Positions 1 through 16,317 are shown, numbered from the stretch's first letter. The stretch: DNA of 64,000 nucleotides from an uncultured Gammaproteobacteria bacterium (GCA_964385285.1 CAYLOJ010000002.1:559-64558); one strand, 5' to 3'. A program made the numbers and translations. Notes: a model not told the origin generated them from the sequence alone.

Positions 1-133
1 GATCGACATAATCATCAAGGCGGTGTAATACACAAATTCAACATTGCCACGTACTAGGGCATTGAGCGAAAAGATAAACGTGTAGATTGACGTAAAGTAA
101 ACAATGAACTTCTCTAGTTGATTGGTAGTCATG
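1..133 (-). CDS. Partial CDS (N-terminal ~44 aa, continues beyond the window start); hydrophobic hypothetical protein
   Basis: Reverse complement of 1-133 reads ATG at 131-133 then MTTNQLEKFIVYFTSIYTFIFSLNALVRGNVEFVYYTALMIMSI... with no stop before the window edge. Not in the ORF track because it is incomplete. Confidence 0.25.
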
Positions 134-911
134 GTTTGACGATTAAAATTACCTTAGCGCCATTGTTAATATTATCTGGATCCCAATCATGATTGGCGGA
201 CATCAGCGTATCATAACTATAGGTGTAATCTGCGCCACGCCGAGTACCGGGGTCATTTGTAATGACATGCTCCGCGGTATATCCCTTAATGACGAGCATA
301 TGATATATCGGGCCGGGGGCAGTAAAGTTCGGATTGCCAAGTTCACGTCCAGCAGCAGGAAAGATGACTGGATACCCTTGTGCCAAAGCAGTTTTTACAT
401 CATCCCAGGTCCAATCGTAAATGACCTCGGTATGGAGATCATAAAAATCTGAGATCAAATGGGCAGTTTCCTCGGCAGTCGTATCGATTGGCTGTTTCAA
501 GGTATCTTTGTTGTATTGCACTAAGGTGACAATTGCTGTATCGGCATCATTTGCATCCGGGATGTCACGTCCCTGTAAAAAGCGCGCAGCCATTAATACA
601 CTGGCTTCTTCACAAGACTCTTCATGCAGGGCATCCCAATTCGTGAGTGGAGCCTGGGAAGTAAAAGGAATATCTAAATTTAATTCTGTAGGGATCTCAA
701 TGGCTACAGGTGTATTGCTATTGGTTTCCTCCGTCGTGTTAGTGGTAGATGCATTGTGAACAACATCCACATAGGAAACAGCGCTCGGTACTTCGGCTTT
801 GGGGTTACGCCATTCATTAATAGATTCTTTAATCCGAACGCGCTGTGTCCAGGCGAATACAACCATGATGATGACCAGGAGAACACTAAGGGTAATCAGA
901 ATTTTTTTCAT
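129..911 (-). CDS. Membrane-anchored/secreted peptidase C39-like (BtrH-like) domain protein
   Basis: N-terminal TM/signal (MKKILITLSVLLVIIMVVFA). C-terminal domain with IPFTSQAPLTNWD...ESCEEASVLMAARF...YPVIFP...HMLVIKGY...ITNDPGTRRG is typical of the Peptidase_C39_2 fold. Paralogous to the C-terminus of CDS 18692-19744. Confidence 0.5.
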   Translation of the reverse strand: MKKILITLSVLLVIIMVVFAWTQRVRIKESINEWRNPKAEVPSAVSYVDVVHNASTTNTTEETNSNTPVAIEIPTELNLDIPFTSQAPLTNWDALHEESCEEASVLMAARFLQGRDIPDANDADTAIVTLVQYNKDTLKQPIDTTAEETAHLISDFYDLHTEVIYDWTWDDVKTALAQGYPVIFPAAGRELGNPNFTAPGPIYHMLVIKGYTAEHVITNDPGTRRGADYTYSYDTLMSANHDWDPDNINNGAKVILIVKP

Positions 912-931
912 ACATTACTATCTTAACTATC

Positions 932-2434
932 TTACCGATGTTTAAGCTGGTTTAGCACTAAACGCACTTCGTTATTGCGTAGGCTAAGGATAATGATAGT
1001 ATAGCTAATCATACCACTTCCAGCCATCAATACTAATTGCACCAAAGTGCCTACCGTGAGTTGCCCGACAAGCCAGACCACTACGCCCATAACGATACTT
1101 GCTAGTCCACATTGCAATATGGTTTTACCCATGGCAGGATCCATCAGTTTCGGTAAGCGCCAGAGCAGCAGGAGATCGATCACTAGGGACATGCTGACAA
1201 AGCCCAGTGCTAAACCGGTGACACCAAACCACCAACTGCCGACTAAACAGACCACCACATTCAAGACTGCTCCGATGATACTGATCAATGCCGGAGTCCG
1301 GGTGTCATGTTTCGCATAATAGATCCGTGCCAAGATATGCTGAAAACTCTCTAAGGGGATTGCGAGGGCAAAGACCATTAGAGTGATCGTTGTGCGTGTA
1401 ATCGCCTCTGCATCAAATTCACCGCCACCTAGAAATACAGTAATTAGTGGTCGACTGACAAAAATCATGCCCACCATCGCTGGAAGTGTAAACAATACAA
1501 TGGTGCGCAGCGCGGTCTTAGCATTCCCTAACATTTGATCATGGCGCTCAGCGGCGACATCCGCTGCTAAGAGTGGAAACAAAACGGTGGCAATGGCGAT
1601 GCCAATAAAACTAACCGGCAGACTTTGAAAGTTTCGCGCGAAATTAAAGACCGCGACACTTCCATGTTCAAGCGTAGAACCTACTGCATTGTAGGTCCAC
1701 AAACTGGCTTGGACAGCTAGTAAGCCAATGACCCGTGGCCCCATCAACGCTAGAGTCTGGCGGACAGCGGGGTCATGGAATGCACCAACCCGAATCGTCG
1801 GTTGATAACCGATGCGCCAACTCGCTAGAATCCGAATGGCTAAGTGTAGACAGGCACCGATAATGACACCAAACACGACACCTTGAATGCCAAAGCGCGG
1901 AGCAAAGACAAGGATACCCAGTACAATCCCAACGTTGTACAGCATGGGGGAGAGTGCATAGGCTAAGAACCGGTGCCGGCCTTGTAAGACAGCACCAAAT
2001 AATGTACTGACACCGAAGAGTAATGGTGAGAGCAACATCCAACGACTAGTACTAGTCAGTGTCGCTAAATCGGCAGTGGAGAATCCTGGAGCAATCCAGG
2101 GTGTGATCAGCGGCATACCGGCCAGCGCAAGGAGATCCACGCAAAGTAACGCTACGAGCACAACGGTGAACACACTATTAGCTGCCTGATAAGCAGCCGG
2201 TTCTTGTTTGTGTTTTAAAATTTGTGCAAAGATAGGGATGAAGGCCGTGGTTAATGCCGCCGCAAATAGATTCATAATTAGATCCGGCAATAAAAAAGCC
2301 GAATTAAAAATGTCGACTTCACGACTAGCGCCAAAACTTTGTGCTAACAAACGATCGCGCAATAATCCAAATAGATAACTGCCGGCGGAAGCGCCCGCTA
2401 AAATAATTGCATTACGGCCGAGATGGGAACGCAT
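932..2434 (-). CDS. murJ: Lipid II flippase MurJ/MviN
   Basis: 500 aa polytopic membrane protein. The N-terminus (LAGASAGSYLFGLLRDRLLAQSFGASREVDIFNSAFLLPDLIMNLF) matches the MurJ/MviN family signature. Confidence 0.85.
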   Translation of the reverse strand: MRSHLGRNAIILAGASAGSYLFGLLRDRLLAQSFGASREVDIFNSAFLLPDLIMNLFAAALTTAFIPIFAQILKHKQEPAAYQAANSVFTVVLVALLCVDLLALAGMPLITPWIAPGFSTADLATLTSTSRWMLLSPLLFGVSTLFGAVLQGRHRFLAYALSPMLYNVGIVLGILVFAPRFGIQGVVFGVIIGACLHLAIRILASWRIGYQPTIRVGAFHDPAVRQTLALMGPRVIGLLAVQASLWTYNAVGSTLEHGSVAVFNFARNFQSLPVSFIGIAIATVLFPLLAADVAAERHDQMLGNAKTALRTIVLFTLPAMVGMIFVSRPLITVFLGGGEFDAEAITRTTITLMVFALAIPLESFQHILARIYYAKHDTRTPALISIIGAVLNVVVCLVGSWWFGVTGLALGFVSMSLVIDLLLLWRLPKLMDPAMGKTILQCGLASIVMGVVVWLVGQLTVGTLVQLVLMAGSGMISYTIIILSLRNNEVRLVLNQLKHR

Positions 2435-2850
2435 TAGTTGGGGCTAGTGAATTGGTACACTTGGACAGTGCCATTATCTAAGTAGACTTTGCTACCCGGG
2501 AAGACGATGAGATCACTATAACTTAATCGACCTTTGGGATCTTCCGGGAAGGGCAAGGGTAAGCTATTGCCACAGTGGGTGCAGTGGGGGTGGGCATTAA
2601 ACAAAAATAGTCCGCCACATTCGCAAACTGGTGCATGGCTTTGCAGATCATGCTGTTCGCGCAGTGCTGACCGTTGCAACCACAACCCCTTAATTCTGAC
2701 CTTTGCTTTTGGCTCGATATAGGCATTATGACAGCGTGCACAGTAGAGGTGAGGGAAAACGTTAGAAATCACCGCAAAACGTAGTTGTGACTGGCACGAG
2801 GTACAGGCCATCGTCTGTTGTTGTTCTCCTTGAACGGGTATGGATTTCAT
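2434..2850 (-). CDS. Cys-rich zinc-ribbon protein (hypothetical)
   Basis: 138 aa with paired CxxC motifs (CTSCQSQ...CARCHN, CECGG...CTHCGN). Its stop overlaps the murJ start as TAATG. Confidence 0.4.
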   Translation of the reverse strand: MKSIPVQGEQQQTMACTSCQSQLRFAVISNVFPHLYCARCHNAYIEPKAKVRIKGLWLQRSALREQHDLQSHAPVCECGGLFLFNAHPHCTHCGNSLPLPFPEDPKGRLSYSDLIVFPGSKVYLDNGTVQVYQFTSPN

Positions 2851-2857
2851 AGCATGG

Positions 2858-2866
2858 ATTATAACA
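2858..2866 (-). promoter_or_regulatory. Extended -10 (TGnTATAAT) promoter element 7 nt upstream of the ATG of CDS 2434-2850; near-leaderless transcript
   Basis: Minus-strand sequence reads aaaaaatgTTATAATccatgctATG. No SD sequence is present. Confidence 0.3.
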
Positions 2867-2924
2867 TTTTTTGATGATTCCCGATACTTGCCCCCCGCAG
2901 TATTTTCCGCTAAGGTAGATCCCC

Positions 2925-4703
2925 ATGGCAGATGCAGTGATCGAACAAATTAAGCAGCGCATTGATATTATTGAGTTATTATCAGAGTCGTTGCGTTTAC
3001 AAAAAGCAGGTGGTAATTGGCGGGCGCTGTGTCCCTTTCATCATGAGAACAGTCCGTCATTTATGGTTAGCCAAGAAAAGCAGATTTGGCATTGCTTCGG
3101 TTGTGACAAGGGCGGTGATATTTTTGCCTTCATCCAAGAGATGGAAGGAATAGAGTTTCCGGAAGCGCTCAAAATTTTAGCCCAGCGGGCCAATGTTACG
3201 CTCACACAATTTAATCCTTCCAAGCAACAACGCAAGCAGCAATTATTGCAGGCTGTCGCTTTGGCACAGCAATTTTATGCGCAGGCGTTTCAACAATCTC
3301 AAGAAGCGTTAGTGGCACGCACTTATATTCAGGAACGTGGTTTGAATGCAGACAGTATTACCGGATTTGGTCTCGGATACAGTTACCAAGATTGGTCGCG
3401 TTTAAAAGATTATTTAAAACAGCAAGGGGTGAGTGAGGCTGATCAAGCTGCAGCTGGTTTGGTGATTCACCAGGACTCTGGCGGATACTATGATCGTTTC
3501 CGCGGCCGCGTCATGATTCCATTGCACGATAGTAATGGGGTAGTGGTTGGGTTTACCGCACGTACGTTGAATCCGGCAGAACCGGCAGGCAAATATATTA
3601 ATTCACCACAGTCTGAGATTTACGATAAATCTAGTTTGGTATTTGGCCTGTTTCGCGCGAAGCAAGCGATCAAAAAATTGAACGCTACTTTAGTGATGGA
3701 AGGAAATATGGATGCCATTACGGCGCCGCAACGCGGCTGTCCTATTGCGGCTGCCTCCTCCGGGGCGGCAGTCACTGAACAACAACTTTTACAATTGAAG
3801 CGCTACTCGCATAATTTGTTGCTGGCCTTCGATTTAGATGCCGCCGGTGAAAAAGCGGCTGAACGTGGTATCGATTTAGCCATGCAGCATGCCATGAACA
3901 TTAAAGTGGTGCGCTGGCCAGAACAGTATAAAGATCCTGACGACTGCATCCGTGCTAATCCCGCTGCCTTTAAAGAAGCAATCCGTCAGGCTATTGGAAT
4001 TGTCGATTACTGGTTCATGCAAGCGATGCGTGATCTACAACTTACCAGAGTTGAACATAAAAAATTATTAGTACAACGCTTGCTACCCAAACTGGCCAAG
4101 CTAAAGGATCCGGTTGAGATTGCTCATTATGTGCAGCAGCTAGCCGATGTGGTACGGGTAGATGCACATTTACTACAAGAACAGGTACGGCGTTTAGCGG
4201 GTGGAAAGGGGAATGCCGTGCGTGTGAAGCAAGCTCCAGTGAAACCACGTGGCCAGGATCGCTCTGCACGGTTGGCGGAACATGCTCTCGGTTTGTTGCT
4301 GTTAATGCCTGAGCAGTTAGGATATGCTCAGACCTATCTTGATATCGGATTCATTGCTGACCCTACCCTAGAGGAGCTTTACAGAAGAATGCTAGATCAG
4401 TATAATAAGGCCGGTCAGTTTTCAGAGGAAACCTATCTAAACGCATACCCGGCGGATGCTCCGCTCTTGGGAAAACTACGTTTACAAGTCACTAAAGATT
4501 TCCCTGAACGGTCGCTCGTAGATCAGCAAGAAGCTCTCATTACGGTCATCCGTGAATTACATAAGCGCTATGTAGAGCAACGCTTGCGTTCTATCGAAGT
4601 AGAACTAAAACAAGCCGATTTACAAGAGCAGCAAGAGCTCTCTAATCAATTGATGGAAGAAGCTCAGCTCCTTACGCAACAATTAACTGCGTTATCTCAA
4701 TAA
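2925..4703 (+). CDS. dnaG: DNA primase DnaG
   Basis: CHC2 zinc finger ([34 protein letters not shown]), a TOPRIM region (VMEGNMDAI...[12 protein letters not shown]) and a C-terminal helicase-interaction region. 592 aa. Confidence 0.9.
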
Positions 4704-4705
4704 TA

Positions 4706-6040
4706 ATGGCAAAGCGTCCGGTTACATCCATGAAAGCCAAATCTAAAACTCCAGCCAAAGGGAAGGTTAAGCCTAAAGCAAAACCAAAAGCACAACCTAA
4801 ACCCAAAGCAAAACCTGTAAAGAAACAACCGGCAAAAAAACCTGTAAAGAAACCGGTTGTTAAAAAGAAAACCGCTGAAAAAAAACCGCTAGCTAAAAAG
4901 TCTTCAGACAAAAAGGTTAAAGCTCCAGCTCTCGTTTTGTCTGCACCCGTTCCATTTCCTGTTGATGGCGCTGAGTTATTGTTGAAAAAGGGCCGCACCC
5001 GCAACTTCCTCACAGAAACTGAGATGCTCTATACCTTCAATAGTTTGGAAGATTACGTTTCTGAATTTGAATTCTGGTTAGGGTTAGTAGAAAAATCGGG
5101 TATTCAGGTGATTGAAACCGATGGTAACGTACTTGGGTTAGATGCAAAACGTGTCGGCTTAGTAGATGCAAATCGTGAAAAGGCTGGTAAAGCGGCGATG
5201 GATCTGTCTGATATTTCTGGTGACTCCATTCAGATGTATTTGCGAGAAATTGGTAAAGTACCGTTATTGTCGACCGAAGAGGAGATTCGTTTAGCCAAAT
5301 TAAAAGAGGCCGGAGACCTGGAAGCAAAGCGCAAGTTGCTAGAAGCAAACTTACGCTTGGTAGTAAGTATTGCTAAAAAATTCACCGGCCGCTCATTATC
5401 CTTATTGGATCTTATCCAAGAGGGCAACATTGGTTTACATCGCGCTGTTGAAAAATTTGATTATCGTAAAGGTTATAAATTTTCTACCTACGCTACCTGG
5501 TGGATTCGCCAAGCCATTACCCGTAGTTTGGCCGATCAATCTCGTACCATTCGTATTCCGGTGCACATGGTGGAAACAATCAATAAATTTCAACAGATTG
5601 AACGTGGCTTAATTCAGATCCTTGGTCGCGAACCCCTACCTGAAGAGATCGCCGCAGAAATGGGTGAAGAGTTGGACAAGGTCCATACCATTATTAAGAT
5701 CTCTCAAGAAACTGTTTCATTAGAAACTTCTGTTGGGGATGATGAATCTGAAGATTCTACACTTGGCGATTTCATCGAAGATCAAAAGACCATGTCTCCA
5801 GATCGTTCGGCTTCACTGCAACTCTTAAAGGATCACGTCTTTGATATTATTAAAGATCTACCACCACGCGAGCAAAAAATTCTTGAAATGCGTTTTGGAT
5901 TGATCGACGGTGTGTCCCATACCTTGGAAGAGGTTGGTCAGGAGTTTGGAGTTACTCGTGAACGTATTCGTCAGATTGAAGCTAAAGCTTTGGATAAAAT
6001 TCAACAGCACGTCGGCATGCGCAAGCTAAGGGATTATTAA
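4706..6040 (+). CDS. rpoD: Primary sigma factor RpoD (sigma-70) with a lysine-rich N-terminal tail
   Basis: Regions 1.2-4 are conserved ([58 protein letters not shown]). The first ~90 aa are KPKAKP/KKPV repeats. It lies immediately downstream of dnaG, the conserved operon order. Confidence 0.9.
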
Positions 6041-7747: not shown

Positions 7748-8489
7748 AACGTGGTTGCAGTTGGTGGGTGGGGCACTGGCCTGCGTTGCCATTGGTCTGA
7801 CTGCGTTAACACTCTGGTTATATTTTGTAATTGCTAGTGGTTTGCCGGCTGAGCGACCAGCCGAGTTTACATTTGAAATTGCCGAAGGCGGTGGCATGCT
7901 AAATCAATCCTCGAGTTATGAATTAACAAATGGCCAACTGACCTATACGGATCACTATGAAGACAGTACGGTCACGACGCAATTTGATCTGAGTGAAGAG
8001 GAGTTGGATTATTTTTGGCAGATTTTGCGAGTGCAGCGGTTTGATCGCATGCGCGCGCATGAAGAGCAAGGCGTCTATGATCGTGGCGGTACTACGATGC
8101 GGCTGAACTACAATGATGTCAATATTTCAGCCACCGATGCCGGCATGACCTTTTTAAATGGTTCGAGCTCAAAGCGTTTTTATGCTATCGAACGAGAGCT
8201 GACCACATTAGTAAAACCATACCTAGATAATCGTATGCGTTCCGTTGCAGTGAAGATTGACCCTGCAGTTGCGCCTGCTGTTCAGTTTGTACAACTCAAT
8301 GCGCAAGTGCTGTACGCACAGACTGGTGATGCCAGTGGACACCTTTCGGTATTACCTGGTGATTATCTTGTCAGTCTGACAACGCAAGATGGCTATGAAA
8401 CCAGCATGGTCACCATTACAGAAGCCTCAAATATTGTGGTGAGTGGTTCACCAGATGCGATTACCGTAACCGTAGAACCAATTCTTTAG
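7737..8489 (+). CDS. Hypothetical membrane-anchored protein
   Basis: In-frame ATG at 7737 overlaps the thyX stop. N-terminal TM (WLQLVGGALACVAIGLTALTLWLYFVIASGL). No recognised domain. Confidence 0.4.
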   Translation: MSVKTWLQLVGGALACVAIGLTALTLWLYFVIASGLPAERPAEFTFEIAEGGGMLNQSSSYELTNGQLTYTDHYEDSTVTTQFDLSEEELDYFWQILRVQRFDRMRAHEEQGVYDRGGTTMRLNYNDVNISATDAGMTFLNGSSSKRFYAIERELTTLVKPYLDNRMRSVAVKIDPAVAPAVQFVQLNAQVLYAQTGDASGHLSVLPGDYLVSLTTQDGYETSMVTITEASNIVVSGSPDAITVTVEPIL

Positions 8490-8617
8490 TTCTTGAACTC
8501 TAGTTTCTACAGCGTAGTATTACGCTCTACAAACTAGGTGTGCTCCGAAATGAATCATTTCAGGAGCACCGGAGCGTTCCACCCATGTGGTCACGTTCCG
8601 TCCTCCTAGTGGGCCGA

Positions 8618-9295
8618 CTACTCGCAGTCCGTGTCGCCGAACGTGTCGGCGGCGCCGTCGCAGTCGTCATCAAGGCCGTTGTTGCAGTTCTCGGGCGCGG
8701 CTGGGTTGATGACGTCGCTGGTGTCGTCGCAGTCGTCGCTGGCTGCGCCGTAGCCATCCCCGTCGTTGTCGTCGGTGATGCAGGTGGCGCCCACCTCCCA
8801 GTCCTCATCGAGCACACCGTCACAGTCCTCGTCCTCCTGATCCCCGCATTGCTCGGTGGCACCGGGGTGGATGGACGGATCCTGATCGTTGCAGTCGACG
8901 TCGTACTCATGGCCGTCGAGGTCACGGTCGAAGTCGTTGTCTCCGGCGCAGTTGGAGTCGAGACCGTCGTACCAGATCTCGGGCGCGGCTGGGTTGACGC
9001 TGGCATCGGCATCGTTGCAGTCTCCGCCCGTCCAGCTGGTGCCCGCGGGGAGCACACAGGTGGTGTTGAGGGCGTCGTAGCCGTAGCCATCGTCGTCCTC
9101 ATCCAGGTAGGCGATCTGTTGTAGGCCCTGGTCGATGAGACCATCACAGTCGTCATCGAGGCCGTTGCAGACCTCTGCGGTGGGAGTGCAGGACGGGCCG
9201 GTGTCGGCAACCGTCGCCGTGTCTTCCCCAAGGATCACCACCTTACCGGCGGTGCAGCCCGAGAGTAGACACAGGCACAGAATCATCAGTTTCAT
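8618..9295 (-). CDS. Secreted lipoprotein with MopE-like Cys/Asp-rich putative metal-binding repeats; GC-rich foreign gene
   Basis: Lipoprotein signal (MKLMILCLCLLSGC) preceded by a GGAGG RBS. Repeated CNGLDDDCDG / EDCDGVLDE / NGLDDDCDGAAD motifs. GC about 65%, with overlapping shadow ORFs in every frame. Confidence 0.6.
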   Translation of the reverse strand: MKLMILCLCLLSGCTAGKVVILGEDTATVADTGPSCTPTAEVCNGLDDDCDGLIDQGLQQIAYLDEDDDGYGYDALNTTCVLPAGTSWTGGDCNDADASVNPAAPEIWYDGLDSNCAGDNDFDRDLDGHEYDVDCNDQDPSIHPGATEQCGDQEDEDCDGVLDEDWEVGATCITDDNDGDGYGAASDDCDDTSDVINPAAPENCNNGLDDDCDGAADTFGDTDCE

Positions 9296-9419
9296 GGAAC
9301 CTCCGTTCCTGTTGAGGGTCGTTGCCTGAAAACGCGGATCATTTTTAGCTGACTTTGATGGAACTGTCAACGCTAACTGATGATCAAAATACCCAATTTT
9401 ACTATTGTAAAACCAAGCG

Positions 9420-9448
9420 TTGACAGTTTTTTAGCTCAGCACTATAAT
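9420..9448 (+). promoter_or_regulatory. Consensus sigma70 promoter (TTGACA-17-TATAAT) for tRNA-Asn
   Basis: TTGACA at 9420-9425, a 17-nt spacer, TATAAT at 9443-9448, about 32 nt upstream of the tRNA 5' end. Confidence 0.6.
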
Positions 9449-9480
9449 CACAGGCGTTCTTTGAGTAAAGAATAAACTAT

Positions 9481-9552
9481 TCAGGAGTAGCTCAGCGGTA
9501 GAGCAATACGCTGTTAACGTATGGGTCCTGGGTTCAAATCCCAGCTCCTGAG
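9481..9552 (+). tRNA. tRNA-Asn (anticodon GTT)
   Basis: Manual cloverleaf: acceptor TCAGGAG/CTCCTGA, D-arm GCTC-AGCGGTA-GAGC, anticodon stem ATACG/CGTAT with loop CTGTTAA, T-arm CTGGG-TTCAAAT-CCCAG, discriminator G. 72 nt with no encoded CCA. Confidence 0.9.
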
Positions 9553-9598
9553 CATAAATAAAATCACGCCCATCTGGGCGTGATTTTATTTGATTGTT
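9536..9598 (+). repeat. Direct repeat copy 1 (tRNA-Asn 3' end plus terminator; attL-like)
   Basis: aaatcccagctcctgagcataaataaaatcacgcccatctgggcgtgattttatttgattgttc is repeated at 10702-10767 with about 90% identity. Confidence 0.75.
9562..9591 (+). terminator. Rho-independent terminator of tRNA-Asn
   Basis: Hairpin AATCACGCCCA-tc-TGGGCGTGATT followed by TTTATTT. Confidence 0.7.
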
Positions 9599-9710
9599 CA
9601 AGTAGCTAAGGATTTGAAGGGTATCCGAAGAAAGTGCCGGTGGCACTTTGTGAGGAACCCAGGCCGTGAAGGAACTCTGAGCCGGCTTGCGGCGAAGAGT
9701 AGGTGAACGG

Positions 9711-9729
9711 AAATCCCAGCTCCTCAGGA
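9711..9729 (+). repeat. Third, degenerate partial copy of the tRNA-Asn 3' end (aaatcccagctcctcagga)
   Basis: Matches 16 of 19 nt of the tRNA acceptor/T-arm 3' segment. It lies between the two full repeats. Confidence 0.5.
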
Positions 9730-9801
9730 TATCACCCTACTGTTCTTTGAAGCATTGAGCATGATACACTGTAAACAATTTGATATTAGAAATGAATTCA
9801 A

Positions 9802-10689
9802 ATGAGCGATAAGTTAACACGTCAGAGTATATATTCTCAGATATCTCAGTCAATGCGATCTAGCTTTGAAGAATCAAGACAGCTGCCCCATCCAGGAGAA
9901 AAAGGTAGAGCTGCGGAGCTGGTTTTGCGTAACTTCTTATCAAAACATCTGCCAAAACGTTTTGAAGTTTGCTCAGGTTTTATTTTAGATAAAGAGGATA
10001 ATGTTTCTGGTCAAACAGATGTAATAATCTACGATTCTTTAAATTGCCCAGTCTATTCTGTTCATGATGACCTGAGAATTATTCCAAGTGATAACGTTGC
10101 TGCCGTAGTAGAAGTGAAGTCAACGCTCAGGAATCAAGATTTTAATGATGCAGCGACTAAGGCATCAGTAATAAAGCATTTAGTTAAAACACCTGAACAA
10201 CCATCTAAAGAGATGGTCTTAACCAATACTTATGTTTCTTTGTTTGCATTTGACAGCGACCTTCCAAAGGAGAAAGTATGCGAACTTCATGCCACTTCAG
10301 TAAATGGTCGTGGATTAACTTGGCATCTTGATTCTGTATGCATTCTAGATAAAGTAATTAGCTATACGTCTGTAGAAATCGAACAACAAACACAAGGTCC
10401 ACAACCCATGGAACTTTCAGCCTTGAATCCTGCTGTTACTCGAGATAGATTGACTAAATTTAGTATCAGCGCTGAAGAAAAGAACCAGGACAGTCTAGAA
10501 ATATGGTTGCGTTTACTGCTAGCACACTTATCATTCTTTCGACACCGCGTTGACCATCCTGGCTTTGATTGGGACCGTAGCACACTCACGTGCGTATCTT
10601 TATTTGATATGCCTAGACGAAACCCAGAACGGAATGATCCTTGCTATTGCCTATCAGGCAATAAGTGGAAGTACTGTCATGGCGCTTAG
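9802..10689 (+). CDS. PD-(D/E)xK nuclease-fold protein with a C-terminal SEC-C zinc-binding motif (cargo of the tRNA-flanked cassette)
   Basis: Nuclease-core motifs QTDVIIYD and AAVVEVKSTL (D...E-V-K). The C-terminus (RNDPCYCLSGNKWKYCHGA) matches the SEC-C CxC-x8-CH motif. Low GC (about 38%) and no SD sequence. Confidence 0.55.
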   Translation: MSDKLTRQSIYSQISQSMRSSFEESRQLPHPGEKGRAAELVLRNFLSKHLPKRFEVCSGFILDKEDNVSGQTDVIIYDSLNCPVYSVHDDLRIIPSDNVAAVVEVKSTLRNQDFNDAATKASVIKHLVKTPEQPSKEMVLTNTYVSLFAFDSDLPKEKVCELHATSVNGRGLTWHLDSVCILDKVISYTSVEIEQQTQGPQPMELSALNPAVTRDRLTKFSISAEEKNQDSLEIWLRLLLAHLSFFRHRVDHPGFDWDRSTLTCVSLFDMPRRNPERNDPCYCLSGNKWKYCHGA

Positions 10690-10701
10690 GCTTAAAACCT
10701 A

Positions 10702-10767
10702 AAATCCCAGCTCCTGAGCATAAATAAAATCGCGCCCAGACGGGCGTGATTTTATTTTATTGTTCCC
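10702..10767 (+). repeat. Direct repeat copy 2 (attR-like), including a second copy of the terminator hairpin
   Basis: aaatcccagctcctgagcataaataaaatcgcgcccagacgggcgtgattttattttattgttc. It begins 12 nt after the stop of CDS 9802-10689. Confidence 0.75.
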
Positions 10768-10848
10768 TTGCTGGGCAATGAACCTATTGCACCGCAAGCA
10801 GTGTTTCGACGTATTCACATAGCCAATGGGATAATGTAAAGGCCACCG

Positions 10849-10881
10849 GAAACATCGTCTCCGGTGGCCTTGCCGTGCCTC
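10849..10881 (-). terminator. Candidate terminator hairpin downstream of the GC-rich M23/MopE gene
   Basis: Perfect 12-bp stem AAGGCCACCGGA / TCCGGTGGCCTT with a 9-nt loop. The following U-tract on the minus strand is weak. Confidence 0.35.
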
Positions 10882-10945
10882 GCTTGGTCGACGCCTCGTC
10901 GCCGAGACGCCGACGCCTGTTGGGCACGGTGCCTACCTTCCCCCG

Positions 10946-13729
10946 CTACAGTCCGTTGCCGTAGCTGAAGCTCCAGCTGGCGCTGTTGCTGCAGGTCGAG
11001 CAGGTCCGCGGGATGCTGGTGTTGTTCAGCACGTAGAAGGTACCGCTACGCCGGACGATGATCTCGTCCTTACCGTCTCCGGTCAGGTCGGCGAAGTAGT
11101 AGTCGTCGCTGTCGCCATACCCGTAGGTGAAGTAGAAGTCGTCCCCGCCTTCGTGGGTCTGATCCACCGTGAAGAGGTTGCCCTCCCGGAAGGTCAGGTC
11201 GATCTCTCCGTCACCATTGAAGTCGGCCAGGTAGTAGTGCTGCGTACTGGTACCCCAACCGAAAGGGTAATACCACTCCTCGCCGCCCGCCGCGTTGTTG
11301 TCCACGACGAAGTAGCGAGTCGACCGCTGGATGGCCAAGGCGCCTCCGTTGCCGAAGTAGTGCCCAACATCACCGCTGACGCCGAAGTTGTAGGTGCGAT
11401 CCGTCTCTCCGTCCGCATCCTCGTCGAGGTAGAAGGTGCCGTAGCCGAACACCACCGCCACACCGTCGCCGGTGGAGAAGTAGGTTGCGCTGACACCATC
11501 ACCATAGGCGAAGACGTAGTCGCTGCTGCCGTCGAGGCCCTCATCGCAGAGGAGCATGTCCAGGCGCCGCAGGCACGGGTCGAGGATGCCGTCGTGGTCG
11601 GAGTCGATGAACAGGTACTGATCTTCCGGACCAGTCCAACTGTCGATCACCCACTCGTTGTTGTCCAAGGTGACACCGATCCCGTCGGAGTCATCATCCG
11701 GTTCGTAGTCGATCGCCTGGAAGCAGACGTTGTCGTTCGTGACCGTAGATTGGAGCTGGACCGATTGAGCCGCCTCGCTGAACCACAGCCCTTGGAAGGT
11801 GTCCGTGGCTGAGTCCAGTGTGAGGTCGTAGCACTCCAGCAGATCGCCCGTTGCGTAGGGGCCGCTGTAGCCACAGGCCGTCATCGGCTGTTCGAGACTG
11901 TACGTCACCAACCCCAGCGTGCTGAAGGTGTGGTCGAACGTCAGGGTCAACTGGGTCTGGTCGTGGCTGTTCGCCATGATGCAGGCATAGTTGCCCCAGG
12001 AGTACTGCATCCAATCTCCCTGGTTGAGGGACAGGATGAAGTGTCCGAAGTCCCAGCCACTGGGGATCAAGGTACCGCTCGCCGCTTCGTCAAAGTGTTC
12101 GCCGTCGAGATGATCCAGACCGGTTTCGGTCAAGAAGTCCTCGAAGTCGAGCTCAACTCCGCTCAGAGCGACCGAGTTGTTGTCGATGACGCCATCACAG
12201 TCGTTGTCGACGCCGTCGTACCACTCCCAGCTGTCCGGGTTGATGTTCGCATCGGTGTCGTCACAGTCACCATCGGCGACGCTGTCCCCATCGTTGTCGA
12301 GGTCATTGTCGTCCGCGGCGGCTGAATCCACATCGAGCGCGTCGTCGGTAATGCTGAACGCAGAGTAGATGCAGGTGAGCTGGGAGTTGTTGGTGATGGT
12401 TGCACTGCCCTCGCTCAGATCGTAGTAGACGACCCGTTGGTAGCCAGCGGCGTTGGTGCCGCTGAAGGTCTGCAGGTAGCGGTCTCCGTTCGCGCAGACA
12501 CCCCCCGTGGGGTAGCCGAAGTGCTTGGAGGCACCGTACTTCTCGTACTTGCGCGCGATGGCATAGGAAACGACGTCGTCCCAACCTCCGCTGGTGAACT
12601 CACCCGGTGCGAAGCCGCTCGGGTAGTCGAGCACGTCCACCGGATTCGCTCCGGTGTTGGTGTCGTCCGGGTGGTAGGTCACACGACAGTCCTGGAAATC
12701 CTGCACCCACTTGTGGCCCTTGCCGTAGACGTTGGTGATGGGATTGCCGCAGTACTGCGGATCATGGGACGTGGAGCCCTGCGGACCGTTGGTCTGCAAC
12801 CAGCCGGACCACTGCTGCGCTTGCACAACGTAGGCGTGGTTTGCACCGCCCCAATCGTCGAAGACGACGGCGCCAGTGCAGGAGCCCGTGTAGTCCTGGG
12901 TGTAGAGCGTGGTGTACTCGTAGTTGCCCGTGCGGCAATCCCGACAGGTTGAGGACTGGCTCGGCGTCTGGCCGCTGCTGTAGCCCCACCAGTGCAAGGT
13001 TCCATTGGCGCTGCTGATGCAGATGCCCGGACTCTCCTTGGTGCCCGTCGCCGAGTTCTTCCGCTTGTTGTGCTTGTTGTAGGTACCGAAGTCGGTAGTG
13101 AGAGCGGTGGAGATGAGAGTGGAGGTGGAGGTAGAACTACCAGGGAGAACCGGAGGACACTGAGTCCACAAGTTGTCATCTCCACACCCAGTATCTTCGT
13201 TGTAGATGTCGGGGTAGATTTCCTGAGTGGAATACAGGTCGTAGGGGTCAAGATTTTCACCGCACCCAGGCTGACCGTAGCTATCCTCACTGACTTCGTA
13301 GTGGAGGTGAAGATAGCCATTCGAAGCATTACCACTCTTGCCGGACATACCGAGATAATCACCCACACTGAAATACCCAGAGCTGAACTCGCAGCTCTCA
13401 AGGTGAGCATAGACAGTGTAGTAGGTGTGGGAGCCAGTAGCATAGCTACCCTTAGCGTACCAACCCCAACTGTCGCTCCAACCACACGTGTAGTTACCAT
13501 CATGGGAAGCGGTCACCTCGAAGGTCAACCACTGGCCAGAGGTCCCCTTGCGGTAATCAATGCCGCAATGGTTCGCGGTAGTATAGTCGTAGATCCAACC
13601 CTGCTGAACATAAACAGCAGCATCATTGGTCGGCAAGTACAGATAGTTCGGCGAATCGGCCTTGGCAGGCACAGTGAACAGGAACAGAGCCAAGATGCTC
13701 AGAACGAGGATGCGCAAAGAGCGTTCCAT
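10946..13729 (-). CDS. Secreted multidomain protein: N-terminal M23 (LytM) peptidase, Ser/Thr linker, MopE-like Cys/Asp repeats, C-terminal FG-GAP/VCBS-like repeats; GC-rich foreign gene
   Basis: Signal peptide MERSLRILVLSILALFLFTVPAKA with a GAGGT RBS. M23 motifs YYTVYAHLES...GMSGKSGNASNGYLHLHYEV. MopE-like DGDCDDTDANINPD and WYDGVDNDCDGVIDN. FG-GAP-like DFNGDGEIDL and DLTGDGKDEIIV. GC3 is very high, with shadow ORFs in all frames. Confidence 0.65.
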   Translation of the reverse strand: MERSLRILVLSILALFLFTVPAKADSPNYLYLPTNDAAVYVQQGWIYDYTTANHCGIDYRKGTSGQWLTFEVTASHDGNYTCGWSDSWGWYAKGSYATGSHTYYTVYAHLESCEFSSGYFSVGDYLGMSGKSGNASNGYLHLHYEVSEDSYGQPGCGENLDPYDLYSTQEIYPDIYNEDTGCGDDNLWTQCPPVLPGSSTSTSTLISTALTTDFGTYNKHNKRKNSATGTKESPGICISSANGTLHWWGYSSGQTPSQSSTCRDCRTGNYEYTTLYTQDYTGSCTGAVVFDDWGGANHAYVVQAQQWSGWLQTNGPQGSTSHDPQYCGNPITNVYGKGHKWVQDFQDCRVTYHPDDTNTGANPVDVLDYPSGFAPGEFTSGGWDDVVSYAIARKYEKYGASKHFGYPTGGVCANGDRYLQTFSGTNAAGYQRVVYYDLSEGSATITNNSQLTCIYSAFSITDDALDVDSAAADDNDLDNDGDSVADGDCDDTDANINPDSWEWYDGVDNDCDGVIDNNSVALSGVELDFEDFLTETGLDHLDGEHFDEAASGTLIPSGWDFGHFILSLNQGDWMQYSWGNYACIMANSHDQTQLTLTFDHTFSTLGLVTYSLEQPMTACGYSGPYATGDLLECYDLTLDSATDTFQGLWFSEAAQSVQLQSTVTNDNVCFQAIDYEPDDDSDGIGVTLDNNEWVIDSWTGPEDQYLFIDSDHDGILDPCLRRLDMLLCDEGLDGSSDYVFAYGDGVSATYFSTGDGVAVVFGYGTFYLDEDADGETDRTYNFGVSGDVGHYFGNGGALAIQRSTRYFVVDNNAAGGEEWYYPFGWGTSTQHYYLADFNGDGEIDLTFREGNLFTVDQTHEGGDDFYFTYGYGDSDDYYFADLTGDGKDEIIVRRSGTFYVLNNTSIPRTCSTCSNSASWSFSYGNGL

Positions 13730-13823
13730 GATGACCTCACAACAGATTGTAAAAGTACGTCCTAGCTAGGAGGATTCCTGAACTAGCCATACCAATCCAA
13801 TGGTTGGATTGGTAGTGGCCAAG

Positions 13824-14612
13824 TCAGGAATTGGTTTGAAATGTGTGCACAATATTTAATAAGTCATTTTGGTCATAATTGCCATTATTTGTTTCCATTG
13901 TAAAAACTACACTTTGGACTGGCTTACCCATGTTCGTTAATTCAGCATCCGGGAGCGGAATGTAAATATAGTGGTAATTTGAGTTGCCTTCCCAGCTTTT
14001 TTTCAGGTAAACATTAGTTGCTACAATATTGTTATCCAGTAGTGTTGTATCGCCAATTGTAAAAGCAAAACCTTGTTCACTAACTAAGTCAGAAACTTCA
14101 AGGTCAGAAACAGCAACTGAAATTAACTTACCTCTTGCAACTGATTCCATTACTCCTACTCCCATCACATCTGTTAGAGATTTGTAGTGATCAATTTCTG
14201 CAGTAATATCTGCGTTGTCAAGCGAAGTAGCAAATACTATATCTGTCGTATTGACCTGATATCGTGGGTTATCATATGATTTTTTATATTCTTCAAAGAT
14301 ATCGTTTGAAATTTGCCAGTCCTTTGGATACTTAAAACTAAATCCATATTTCTCATTTGTATATGTCTGCCAATCGGAAGTATCTAAATCTGAAACTTCA
14401 GTGTTGCTATTCTCGTTCAGATTGGTATTAGCAATGGCCTCGTTCACATTGTCATTCGCAGTGGTAGTATTTGTGACTGTGTTTGTATTGTTCACACTAG
14501 TATTCACCACTGCATTGGCATTGGTATTGGTCTTTGTATCAGTAACGCAGCCTGCGAGTGTGATGGCGCTCAAGGCTAGGGCTGGTAGTAGATAAGGTGG
14601 TTTGTATGTCAT
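13824..14612 (-). CDS. Lipoprotein with an N/T-rich low-complexity linker (hypothetical surface protein)
   Basis: Lipobox LALSAITLAGC. Linker TNTNANAVVNTSVNNTNTVTNTTTANDNVN. Globular C-terminal domain with no recognised family. Confidence 0.5.
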   Translation of the reverse strand: MTYKPPYLLPALALSAITLAGCVTDTKTNTNANAVVNTSVNNTNTVTNTTTANDNVNEAIANTNLNENSNTEVSDLDTSDWQTYTNEKYGFSFKYPKDWQISNDIFEEYKKSYDNPRYQVNTTDIVFATSLDNADITAEIDHYKSLTDVMGVGVMESVARGKLISVAVSDLEVSDLVSEQGFAFTIGDTTLLDNNIVATNVYLKKSWEGNSNYHYIYIPLPDAELTNMGKPVQSVVFTMETNNGNYDQNDLLNIVHTFQTNS

Positions 14613-14758
14613 AAGCTGAATGTGGATAATTATGAATGTGTTAGATCAGGTTAGTTTGGCATAGTGGATACTAATGTAGATTTCTGGTATTCACTGCAAT
14701 ACTAGTGAAAGTGTCATCTTAGTGTACGGGACGCCCAAAATTGATCAATAGTTCTGTC

Positions 14759-14841
14759 GCGACGGCGCTATGCAAAAAACACTACTTTATCTAAGCAGAG
14801 TAGAATAATCTGCGAACAGTTGTGTTATCCCCAGACGGCGC
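14759..14841 (+). repeat. 83-nt paralogous intergenic element, copy A (starts GCGACGGCGC, ends CCCCAGACGGCGC)
   Basis: About 75% identical to 16092-16174, same length and orientation. It lies about 150 nt upstream of minus-strand CDS 13824-14612. Confidence 0.6.
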
Positions 14842-14904: not shown

Positions 14905-16047
14905 CTACCTGGATGGGGTTAACAAAGTTCTGTAAATGCGATTATACTCAGTGACAAAATAAAGATAGTTTTCAGTCAATACCATATCATTAATGCTAGC
15001 GTCATGTGTAGACCCAATTTGTTTCCAATTAGTAAAGTCTTTCGTACTTAGCACAACACTTTGTCCAGTATCATTCAGTGCTGACAGATATATTAATTCA
15101 GAGCTGCTATCAAAAAGTATGTGATCTTGAACTTTGAATCCAGTTATTCTCAATTTTTTCCAAGTTGTCCCTGCATCAGCTGAGTAGTATAATATACGAC
15201 GCTCTCCTTGCTCGAAGTATTCAAAAATATAGTTGCCTATTAAACCAACGTCCGTAGGACTAGTTTGAAATTTTTTAATGGATTGCCAGTGCGTGGCGTC
15301 ATCAGATATAAATAACTTTTTATTTGACTGAAGATATATTTTTTGATTAAAAACAAAAGAATGAACTGGCATGATAACTTCATGATCTGGCACATTCTGA
15401 TAATCAAGTACATCTGATTGGTTTGATTTTAGCGTATATGCACCCAAACGTTGGTTGCGGCTTCCAAAAAAATAGTACTTACCATTAAAGCGTACGCCCG
15501 ACATTTCCAATAAGTATGATTCTACCGTTGGCAATAATACAGCCTTTGAATCGCCCACGCCATGATGAAACTTGGTAACGACAAGCTGACTAGAACCACA
15601 AGAAGTATAAAGCCACTCTTTATAAGAGAAGAAATATTGTTGGCTTTGAGTGTAATAACAGTTATTCAAGAAAGTGATGGTGTTATTAGTCGTGATCCTG
15701 TACAAACCATCCCCAAAGTAAACATACAATGCATTGTTGTAGACAACTGCTGGTTTATGCCCAACCTGGTAGCTAGAGTAATCAAACGAACCTTGAAGTA
15801 GATAGCTCCAACCAGCTTGCGTCAGTGTTGCGAATGTGTAGGGATACGATGAACTTATGGGCCCCCCACTATCATAGTGAGTAAAGTAAATAGTATTATT
15901 GAAACTGTATAAGTGCTGGCTTGCATTGGAATAAGGGCTAATAATTTCTGGAGAAACATCTTCCCAGGTTGCATCAACGACATCCATAGCAAAACCCCTA
16001 CAGGGTAACAATAACAGTGCTGCTAAAACGATACATTTATAATCCAT
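14905..16047 (-). CDS. Secreted BNR/Asp-box repeat protein (beta-propeller, sialidase-like fold)
   Basis: Signal peptide MDYKCIVLAALLLLPCRGFA. Asp-box motifs YYSADAGTTWKKL and STKDFTNWKQI. The annotated longer start at 16128 runs into repeat copy B, so the start was moved to the internal Met at 16047. Confidence 0.5.
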   Translation of the reverse strand: MDYKCIVLAALLLLPCRGFAMDVVDATWEDVSPEIISPYSNASQHLYSFNNTIYFTHYDSGGPISSSYPYTFATLTQAGWSYLLQGSFDYSSYQVGHKPAVVYNNALYVYFGDGLYRITTNNTITFLNNCYYTQSQQYFFSYKEWLYTSCGSSQLVVTKFHHGVGDSKAVLLPTVESYLLEMSGVRFNGKYYFFGSRNQRLGAYTLKSNQSDVLDYQNVPDHEVIMPVHSFVFNQKIYLQSNKKLFISDDATHWQSIKKFQTSPTDVGLIGNYIFEYFEQGERRILYYSADAGTTWKKLRITGFKVQDHILFDSSSELIYLSALNDTGQSVVLSTKDFTNWKQIGSTHDASINDMVLTENYLYFVTEYNRIYRTLLTPSR

Positions 16048-16091
16048 ATGTGCAGCATAAAAGTTCACACCAATAAACACAAGGGCGCTGA

Positions 16092-16174
16092 TGCGACGGC
16101 GCAAGGGCAAAAACGCTACTTTCATCAAGCAGAGTAAAATAATTTACGCATGAATGAGTTTTCCCCAGACGGCG
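16092..16174 (+). repeat. 83-nt paralogous intergenic element, copy B
   Basis: gcgacggcgcaagggcaaaaacgctactttcatcaagcagagtaaaataatttacgcatgaatgagttttccccagacggcgc. It lies about 45-125 nt upstream of minus-strand CDS 14905-16047. Confidence 0.6.
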
Positions 16175-16317
16175 CACTCATGGCACGGAACGTTCTCATA
16201 ACTTCTTCCGAGATGGTGTCTACCATGAGGTCAGAATTTGGCCAGTTTTTGTTTTGCGCTATAAAAAAAACACAAACTTTGCTAAGGTATAAATATAATC
16301 AATAACTGAATGCACTT

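Follow-up and report, generated by a model that had tools for sequence, protein, structure and literature searches.

A mosaic GC-rich M23 peptidase-type gene module beside a tRNA-Asn gene of Candidatus Kerfeldbacteria

Two GC-rich genes in a variable region

The window analysed here, a 64-kb stretch of contig CAYLOJ010000002.1 in which positions are counted from the first letter, has a mean GC content of 45.9%. By its gene content it is shown to be a chromosome segment of Candidatus Kerfeldbacteria, which belongs to the Candidate Phyla Radiation (CPR)/Patescibacteria: the closest relatives of the ThyX protein adjoining the locus are 67-81% identical and occur in metagenome-assembled genomes (MAGs) of Candidatus Kerfeldbacteria and other Patescibacteria, and murJ, dnaG and rpoD are found upstream of the locus. 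Two regions stand out in the GC profile, 8601-9200 with 64-65% GC and 10801-13200 with 58-64% GC. They correspond to two genes on the minus strand, at 8618-9295 (225 aa) and 10946-13729 (927 aa). Both look expressed and code for secreted proteins, and within a variable region they flank an ancestral tRNA-Asn gene. Together with a low-GC lipoprotein gene, the larger of the two constitutes a two-gene module which is seen only in Patescibacteria-type contexts and which is the main subject of this analysis.

The fraction of GC at third codon positions (GC3) is 0.82 for the 225-aa gene and 0.79 for the 927-aa gene, while the 48 remaining open reading frames (ORFs) of the window have a mean of 0.415 (standard deviation 0.042, maximum 0.50). 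This is an excess of 9.7 and 8.8 standard deviations, respectively. GC at the first and second codon positions (GC1 and GC2) is far less shifted. The tetranucleotide CTAG is not present within either gene, and overlapping shadow ORFs are numerous in both blocks. A Shine-Dalgarno-like motif is located 4-5 nt 5′ of each ATG (GGAGG for the 225-aa gene, GAGGT for the 927-aa gene), whereas a scan of start regions found such a motif before none of the 48 other window ORFs. In many host ORFs, the ATG is instead preceded, at a distance of 6-9 nt, by a TANNNT box. The two observations on the host ORFs suggest that leaderless mRNAs, or initiation independent of a Shine-Dalgarno motif, may be widespread in this Kerfeldbacteria genome. 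An earlier reading, made from the window alone and here called the sequence-only reading, had described a compositionally foreign high-GC segment in two blocks, with shadow ORFs and with GGAGG/GAGGT ribosome-binding sites unlike those of the host. All of this was borne out, as the segment is atypical by every measure (GC3 about +9 standard deviations).

The gene at 8618-9295 (minus strand, GC 0.64), preceded by GGAGG at 9300-9304, codes for a 225-aa lipoprotein with four Cys/Asp-rich MopE repeats (PF11617; 98.6 bits, E=2e-28, against a Pfam gathering score of 27 bits). Its lipobox, LLSGC, was recognized by inspection. A GC-rich gene is thus present in the block 8576-9300 of the sequence-only reading, but it starts with the ATG at 9295 and not with the TTG upstream. 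A consensus scan alone predicts a low-GC, sigma-70-like promoter (TTGACA-18-AAAAAT, 9341-9370, minus strand) upstream of the gene. At the left GC boundary there is a hairpin 3′ of the gene (8541-8575, minus strand; the fold of 8530-8620 on this strand has -37.7 kcal/mol, z -4.0 relative to shuffles). Many of the named matches of the protein are from Myxococcota or Polyangiales, and its best homologue, which is 44% identical, is from a 73% GC genome. Judged from its repeats, the protein is plausibly an accompanying surface adhesin or a metal-binding protein.

The gene at 10946-13729 (minus strand, GAGGT at 13734-13738) codes for a secreted protein which is composed of a signal peptide (AKA/D, by inspection), an M23/LytM domain, a family-specific middle domain, one MopE repeat (PF11617, 31.1 bits, E=2.8e-7) and a beta-propeller-like C-terminus. 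MopE motifs in both secreted proteins had been noticed before, and PF11617 indeed matches both. Alignment with protein P0001, a relative, shows that the zinc motifs of the M23 domain are intact (the window protein has HCGID and HLH, P0001 has HNGVD and HLH). The C-terminal 237 residues model as an all-beta domain resembling a beta-propeller (pLDDT 73), for which Foldseek matches WD40, BamB and YxaL propellers at TM 0.35-0.49; FG-GAP models are matched by relatives of the protein. The AlphaFold model of the middle domain (pLDDT 49) is unusable, and sequence searches against the PDB returned nothing informative.

The base composition of this gene is not uniform. Its first 630 nt (13100-13729), which code for the signal peptide and the M23 domain, have an intermediate GC of about 0.52 and a GC3 of 0.54-0.66. 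At the other end, high GC continues beyond the stop codon into a 3′ untranslated region (UTR) of 107 nt (10839-10945, minus strand). It carries two strong hairpins (-64.7 kcal/mol, z -6.6), one belonging to a terminator at 10839-10871, and is kept at L001, one of the loci from other assemblies described below. The second block of the sequence-only reading, about 10845-13740, is high in GC as described but takes in this UTR.

Upstream of the 927-aa gene is its partner, a gene for a PsbP_2-like lipoprotein (13824-14612, minus strand, GC 0.37, GC3 0.33; PF18933, E=5.6e-8). The intergenic region of about 95 nt consists of a hairpin after the lipoprotein stop codon, a palindrome, a CTTYNACAAT box and then the Shine-Dalgarno motif. 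The hairpin (approximately 13784-13821, minus strand) is found at the right GC edge and has a z of -3.8 relative to shuffles; its structure is kept across loci while its sequence is not. Thus, hairpins do occur at both outer GC edges, as the sequence-only reading had stated, and both fold better than shuffled sequences.

A mosaic lipoprotein/M23 module of Patescibacteria

A word-based search with the 927-aa protein retrieved one close relative, P0001, with 77% identity. Exact-protein look-ups with window proteins gave no match, although the 927-aa protein is itself represented as P0281, from an NCBI contig of 132,960 bp. An exhaustive HMMER search with the C-terminal 699 residues found a handful of additional relatives which share the parts other than MopE. 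Every one of them carries an M23 domain at its N-terminus, and a signal peptide of the type MERY.R..LLSI is common to several of them. A large protein search with a short alignment gave no match. In the JGI metagenomes, no family member was detected with the C-terminal module, while a scan with an alignment of the middle domain yielded three short loci. At the DNA level the family comprises nine genes from nine assemblies, namely the window, L001, L082, L083, L084, L085, L086, L087/L088 and L091, which originate from NCBI, ENA, JGI and Logan. Relatives of the M23 protein were not found in viral contigs, plasmids or phages.

In all nine assemblies the family gene has a GC of 52-61% and is flanked by DNA of 30-45% GC. 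Its GC3 is 0.73-0.84, except for L091 with 0.53, and the neighbouring genes have a GC3 of 0.23-0.43. A low-GC lipoprotein gene (GC3 0.24-0.43) is located directly upstream in seven assemblies (the window, L001, L082, L083, L086, L087/L088 and L091), and in six of the seven, all but L091, the lipoprotein has an N/T-rich linker. The order of the module is a low-GC gene for a PsbP-like lipoprotein, a hairpin, a palindromic leader, a GC-rich gene led by a Shine-Dalgarno motif that codes for M23, MopE and beta-propeller parts, and a long GC-rich 3′ UTR. In six of seven loci, the 150 nt after the stop codon have a GC of 0.53-0.63, compared to 0.35-0.43 for the 150 nt before the start codon. As the 3′ flank is also GC-rich, the GC-rich unit is a block of DNA made up of Shine-Dalgarno motif, ORF and 3′ UTR, and codon choice does not account for it.

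Fourfold degenerate sites of the family genes resemble the ordinary codon usage of an organism with about 60% GC (A 0.03-0.10, C 0.46-0.55, G 0.21-0.36, T 0.13-0.22). Adenine-specific depletion, as with diversity-generating retroelements, is ruled out, since usage at these sites is that of ordinary GC-rich genes, with C exceeding G and T exceeding A. Translational selection for C-ending codons is also ruled out, since the 3′ UTRs are GC-rich while the ribosomal protein genes of L007 are not.

The module is not tied to tRNA-Asn, since the lipoprotein/M23 pair of L091 follows ftsA-ftsZ. Truncated GC-rich M23 remnants were found at L086 (2-529) and L088 (1-440), with abrupt junctions to low-GC DNA and followed by a complete module, so that the order is GC-rich M23 remnant, low-GC lipoprotein gene, GC-rich M23 gene. 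From this arrangement, remnants beside complete modules point to turnover or tandem replacement of modules.

Comparison of the loci shows the module to be mosaic and laterally exchanged within the clade. Window positions 13099-10839 are 91.8% identical to L001 7416-9676 over 2263 nt in blastn, with the terminator included. This segment (10839-13099, minus strand, GC3 0.76-0.88) covers residues about 211-927 and the 3′ UTR. The first approximately 225 residues, that is, signal peptide and M23 domain, are only about 28-35% identical to L001 while the remainder is 94% identical, and the neighbouring lipoproteins of the two loci are about 35% identical over part of their length. The breakpoint coincides with a step of GC3 within the window gene, from 0.54-0.66 to 0.76-0.88. 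By this comparison, the 3′ 2.26 kb of the window module are shown to be a recent replacement by an allele 92% identical to that of a lineage whose flanking genes are about 30-35% identical at the protein level. Equivalent discordance occurs for L086 and L087 (N-terminus 33%, remainder 90% identical) and, in the opposite sense, for L082 and L087 (69% vs 56%), and between loci the similarity of the lipoproteins is discordant with that of the M23 proteins.

Diverged family members have an identity of 0.44-0.68 at fourfold sites within conserved blocks, compared to 0.32-0.49 expected at saturation. This corresponds to more than one substitution per fourfold site, and as the genes are nevertheless GC-rich, a single old import that has not yet ameliorated is a strained explanation. 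Polarising the substitutions between the window and L001 gave no clear signal.

A palindromic leader, GCTAG-N-TCAGGAATCCTCCTAG-CTAG, is located at 13761-13787 (minus strand), about 40 nt 5′ of the M23 ATG, and is unique in the window. It is kept in six loci (the window, L001, L082, L083, L086 and L088), with the consensus GCTAG-N-TCAGGAATCCTCCTR-N-CTAG, and all M23 family genes examined have such a leader or operator at a distance of about 40 nt on their upstream side. The predicted fold of the leader is a small hairpin, in which its CCUCCU, which resembles an anti-Shine-Dalgarno sequence, would be able to pair with the Shine-Dalgarno motif of the gene. The leader contains a boundary motif (13766-13774) that recurs in inverted orientation where the GC-rich region has its left outer edge, with TCCTCCTAG at 8601-8609 on the plus strand. 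The 9-mer TCCTCCTAG has only these two copies in the 64 kb, 8601-8609(+) and 13766-13774(-), with 0.23 expected, so that a perfect 9-bp inverted repeat, TCCTCCTAG/CTAGGAGGA, brackets 8601-13774. In the 236 kb of the window plus Patescibacteria loci, there are six occurrences of the 8-mer CTAGGAGG/CCTCCTAG, of which five are independent, and each of them is at a step from low to high GC and has the same polarity. Sites in relatives are L004 2289-2297, L085 1664-1671 and L087 654-662; they include the edge of an unrelated GC-rich gene of L004 and the 3′ edge of the M23 block of L085. Such a GC step is found for 3.5% of position/orientation pairs, which gives p ~4e-5 when only the three hits not linked to the discovery context are counted. 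The motif may be a recombination site, an operator or a regulatory element of the anti-Shine-Dalgarno type. The locus does not fit an integron gene cassette, which would have an attC site with R''/R' core sites and an IntI integrase, since the ORF scan described below detected no integrase and CCTCCTAG/CTAGGAGG does not correspond to GTTRRRY.

The tRNA-Asn locus and its counterparts in sister genomes

The tRNA-Asn(GTT) gene is encoded on the plus strand (9481-9553) behind a perfect TTGACA-17-TATAAT promoter (9420-9553 including the tRNA). Promoter and tRNA are kept in L004 and L009, 9478-9727 is conserved in L009, and an Rfam scan returned the tRNA alone. A direct repeat of 64 nt starts within the tRNA: its first copy (9536-9599, plus strand) consists of the last 19 nt of the tRNA and the terminator, and its second copy (10702-10765, plus strand), an att-like remnant, is 92% identical. 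A third, partial copy is found at 9711-9731, and none was detected beyond 10765. The repeats enclose only a low-GC islet with a gene for a protein with DUF6602 and SEC-C domains (9802-10689, plus strand, GC3 0.31), and not the high-GC genes. This protein matches NucC-type and Cas-associated PD-(D/E)xK nucleases in addition to its Pfam domains (PADLOC: PD_DExK E=9e-38, NucC E=5e-22), which makes it a candidate defence gene product. By its repeats, the 1.17-kb nuclease islet has the form of a classical small insertion at the 3′ end of a tRNA, distinct from the GC-rich genes. A Pfam scan of the ORFs within 932-23123 detected no integrase or recombinase.

Synteny with sister loci shows that thyX, its 301-aa neighbour, the tRNA-Asn with its promoter and the genes from about 17.6 kb onwards are ancestral. 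The comparison with sister genomes, to which the sequence-only reading had pointed, was informative: L002, L003, L005 and L009 have neither of the two genes nor any other GC-rich gene at this locus, and L004 differs in its slot. At L004 (thyX 81% identical), exactly the place that the 225-aa gene takes in the window, with the thyX neighbour on one side and the tRNA-Asn promoter on the other, is occupied by a different GC-rich gene (2354-3151), which codes for a PF06181 (Urate_ox_N-type) membrane protein with a GC3 of 0.86. On the 3′ side of the tRNA-Asn, the window has about 6.6 kb in excess of the sister genomes, made up of the islet, the 927-aa gene, the lipoprotein gene and a low-GC gene of 407 aa (14905-16128, minus strand) which has weak matches to DUF6242 and Sortilin-like models and completes the extra region. 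Thus, the sequence-only reading was correct that the tRNA locus lies between the two blocks, but the space holds a separate islet as well. It had also proposed a tRNA hotspot; the region is variable and a tRNA-derived repeat does flank an insert, but the repeats bound only the low-GC islet and an integrase is lacking.

We also noticed a direct repeat of 88 nt (14754-14841 and 16088-16175, 76% identity). It is found upstream of the low-GC genes 13824-14612 and 14905-16128, and is possibly a shared promoter or leader. The contigs L003 (CAYZUI010000196.1) and L004 (CAZSXL010000023.1) are from MAGs labelled as uncultured Gammaproteobacteria. Both look Kerfeldbacteria-like, given a thyX identity of 78-81%, a tRNA-Asn match and synteny, and on these grounds the MAGs are probably mislabelled or mis-binned.

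At the start of L001 there is a copy, 57 nt long and 88% identical to the window, of the 3′ end and terminator of tRNA-Asn, but the tRNA itself is absent. Its first part (1-5855) consists of this att-like remnant and EcoRI-type restriction-modification genes, followed by Replic_Relax, DUF932 and HTH genes which have 61-66% GC and a GC3 of 0.73-0.89. Next are the low-GC lipoprotein gene, the M23 gene and a MopE gene. The latter, a MopE/FG-GAP lipoprotein ORF at 10277-12478, has 42% GC in its first approximately 190 codons and 67-70% in the remainder. By this gene order, at least one lineage has GC-rich mobile-element genes and an att-like remnant beside the module. Relatives of the L001 Replic_Relax gene were not found in viral contigs, plasmids or phages.

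Other GC-rich genes were also encountered. In L007, a 40% GC contig, a MopE protein gene (4828-5973) has a GC3 of 0.61. A PNP phosphorylase gene of L006 (17222-17998, GC3 0.75) is located at the contig end. L091 has a 228-aa gene led by a Shine-Dalgarno motif (8481-9167, GC3 0.51). Taking the unrelated GC-rich genes of L004, L006 and L091 together with the element genes of L001, GC-rich DNA evidently enters these genomes repeatedly.

Origin of the GC-rich state and its significance

Overall, we favour, with a little more than even confidence, that the 927-aa gene is part of a GC-rich M23 cassette module which is endemic to the clade and laterally exchanged, and that it is not a one-off import. 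As to how the GC-rich state is kept, we tentatively propose, at chances somewhat short of even, that GC-rich DNA has been re-introduced many times over from a mobile pool and has decayed between the events. Segments of the cassette would re-enter by recombination from the GC-rich mobile gene pool and, between re-introductions, would decay towards the composition of the host. The 5′ part of the window gene (GC3 about 0.6) and the L091 copy (GC3 0.53) would then represent partly decayed states, and it is because of these two and of the element genes neighbouring the module in L001 that re-introduction is favoured.

Several points weigh against this view. The searches turned up no member of the family in a replicon, phage or plasmid that is GC-rich throughout, so that the proposed pool is unobserved. 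A cassette of outside origin would not readily be expected to be so tightly linked to a low-GC partner gene and a low-GC leader. The GC1 of the family genes (0.50-0.57) is host-like and not typical of a proteome encoded at 60% GC, and a truncated remnant shows no extra decay towards AT. The picture of the family is drawn from nine loci only, several of them short. As regards function, the M23 domain of the window protein scores 25.1 bits with PF01551 (E=2.1e-5), below the gathering score of 28.7, although its relatives score 50-81 bits, and the roles proposed below, enzymatic and in immunity, are read from the domains alone.

Alternatively, the family would be a long-term resident whose high GC is not a relic of foreign origin but is actively maintained in place, either by GC-biased gene conversion within a hyper-recombining, multi-copy family of surface proteins or by selection on DNA or mRNA. 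Reassortment of modules is rampant, all diverged members are GC-rich in spite of more than one substitution per fourfold site, GC1 is host-like, GC3 is in several copies lowest in the M23 domain, which has diverged most, and the searches made revealed no GC-rich donor. There are also precedents, since recombining genes of many bacteria have a higher GC3 (PMC4450053) and the vls cassettes of Borrelia have 49% GC in genomes of 28.6% GC (PMC11499132). However, GC changes abruptly, within about 100 nt, at the cassette edges, with no gradient into the flanks, and the lipoprotein gene 95 nt away, which is equally variable, stays at a GC3 of 0.24-0.43. Furthermore, the effects of biased gene conversion reported for bacteria are much below the +0.35-0.45 in GC3 required here, the L091 copy has a GC3 of only 0.53, and neither strong GC skew nor G-runs like those of vls were seen. 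We therefore regard maintenance in place as possible but rather unlikely. A more elaborate possibility, which we judge unlikely, is a cassette system of Kerfeldbacteria-like CPR bacteria that has not been described before: genes for GC-rich secreted effectors, bounded by inverted CCTCCTAG/CTAGGAGG and paired with low-GC lipoprotein genes, would be moved and reassorted between lineages, with their GC actively kept far above that of the genome by biased gene conversion or by a dedicated recombination route. If true, CPR bacteria would thereby have an equivalent of the loci for antigenic variation or polymorphic effectors.

The sequence-only reading had preferred horizontal acquisition from a high-GC donor next to a tRNA hotspot, which is taken here as a single recent acquisition from a distant donor resembling Myxococcota, with the insert later split by the tRNA. 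The foreign-looking composition is in line with this, as GC3, Shine-Dalgarno usage and avoidance of CTAG are typical of a donor with about 60% GC. MopE proteins are native to GC-rich genomes, and the protein search that was to reveal the donor did lead from the 225-aa protein to 73% GC DNA. In addition, L001 has its M23 gene next to a MopE lipoprotein gene with no tRNA between them, the 9-bp inverted repeat brackets 8601-13774, and sister genomes have unrelated GC-rich genes. The best MopE match is just 44% identical, however, and the M23 family was found exclusively in low-GC surroundings (9 of 9 assemblies), usually together with the low-GC partner gene and the conserved leader, its members being diverged yet GC-rich, and their modules reassorted between lineages. 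Sister genomes show that this position held the tRNA-Asn with its promoter ancestrally, the tRNA-derived repeats flank only the low-GC islet with no integrase, and the 927-aa gene itself is a mosaic of two parts which differ in composition. A single acquisition thus seems improbable to us; it is the larger gene that it does not fit. The alternative named in the same reading, a chimera of assembly or binning in which GC-rich pieces of another organism were joined to a Kerfeldbacteria contig, might be suspected from the metagenomic origin of the sequence and its four sharp compositional junctions. It is very unlikely, since the junction of lipoprotein gene, leader and GC-rich M23 gene recurs in independent NCBI, ENA, JGI and Logan assemblies made by different pipelines, and since both blocks are embedded in a 133-kb contig with low-GC flanks on each side. 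The junctions are at promoters, Shine-Dalgarno sites and terminators and not within genes, and the L091 copy of intermediate GC is located between ftsZ and low-GC genes.

Under the favoured reading of a clade-endemic cassette module, and from its domains, the 927-aa protein is most likely a Sec-exported peptidoglycan endopeptidase with a surface-targeting tail, and the lipoprotein its partner or immunity factor. As a zinc enzyme it would cut the cross-links of peptidoglycan, directed to the cell surface by the MopE and beta-propeller modules. The target would plausibly be the envelope of the bacterium that carries the episymbiont, or that of competitors, and the adjacent lipoprotein might assist the M23 protein or protect against it.

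The locus shares features with several known systems. As in tRNA-associated genomic islands, DNA of atypical composition that is absent from sister genomes adjoins a tRNA, and a duplicated tRNA 3′ end flanks an insert; unlike there, the repeats bound only the nuclease islet, no integrase is present, GC-rich genes are found on both sides of the tRNA, and the M23 module also occurs elsewhere, such as beside ftsA-ftsZ in L091. Effector/immunity modules, such as the peptidoglycan-hydrolase pairs of type VI secretion systems or Rhs and contact-dependent inhibition (CDI) cassettes, likewise combine a secreted wall hydrolase with a small lipoprotein gene, and have swapped modular domains, truncated remnants beside intact copies and sharp composition breaks. 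Here, however, there is a Sec signal peptide, markers of type V, VI and VII secretion and RHS/YD repeats are not present, the conserved GC-rich part is C-terminal while the variable part is the N-terminal enzyme, and the immunity role of the lipoprotein is putative. The vls system of Borrelia is also a recombining surface-protein family far above the genomic GC throughout its clade (PMC11499132), but a silent-cassette array, strong GC skew and G-runs were not seen here, and the GC elevation spans a whole gene of 2.8 kb plus its 3′ UTR. With M23 endopeptidases of the LytM/lysostaphin type the protein shares HxxxD and HxH, secretion, and a catalytic domain followed by a surface-targeting region; it differs in that this region (middle domain, MopE, beta-propeller-like part) is without a solved or annotated relative and in that its M23 score is just under the Pfam threshold. 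The repeat C-x-G-x-DDDCDG, and secretion or a lipoprotein nature, are common to the MopE (PF11617) proteins of Myxococcota and other GC-rich bacteria, but identity to the best matches is 33-44%, the genome here is a CPR genome of 46% GC, and the MopE repeats of the relatives L007 and L001 are encoded at low, intermediate or mixed GC.

Islands of atypical GC beside tRNAs are already known, as is horizontal gene transfer in Patescibacteria, most of which takes place inside the phylum (PMC12455944). In the literature searched, we found no account of a lipoprotein/M23 module confined to Patescibacteria that is consistently rich in GC within AT-rich genomes, mosaic between lineages and linked to a CCTCCTAG boundary motif. 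Callers of genomic islands that use GC content, and tools for the decontamination of MAGs, would flag these genes as foreign or remove them as contaminants although they recur in the lineage's own gene pool. If their GC richness is actively maintained, they would be an unusually strong bacterial test case for biased gene conversion versus selection on base composition.

The prevailing view of CPR/Patescibacteria is that they live attached to other microbes. To our knowledge, the molecules used for attachment and attack are mostly unknown. One concrete candidate for a component of this interface is a secreted peptidoglycan hydrolase that is clade-specific and fast-recombining, carries adhesin-like domains and has a lipoprotein as its fixed partner.

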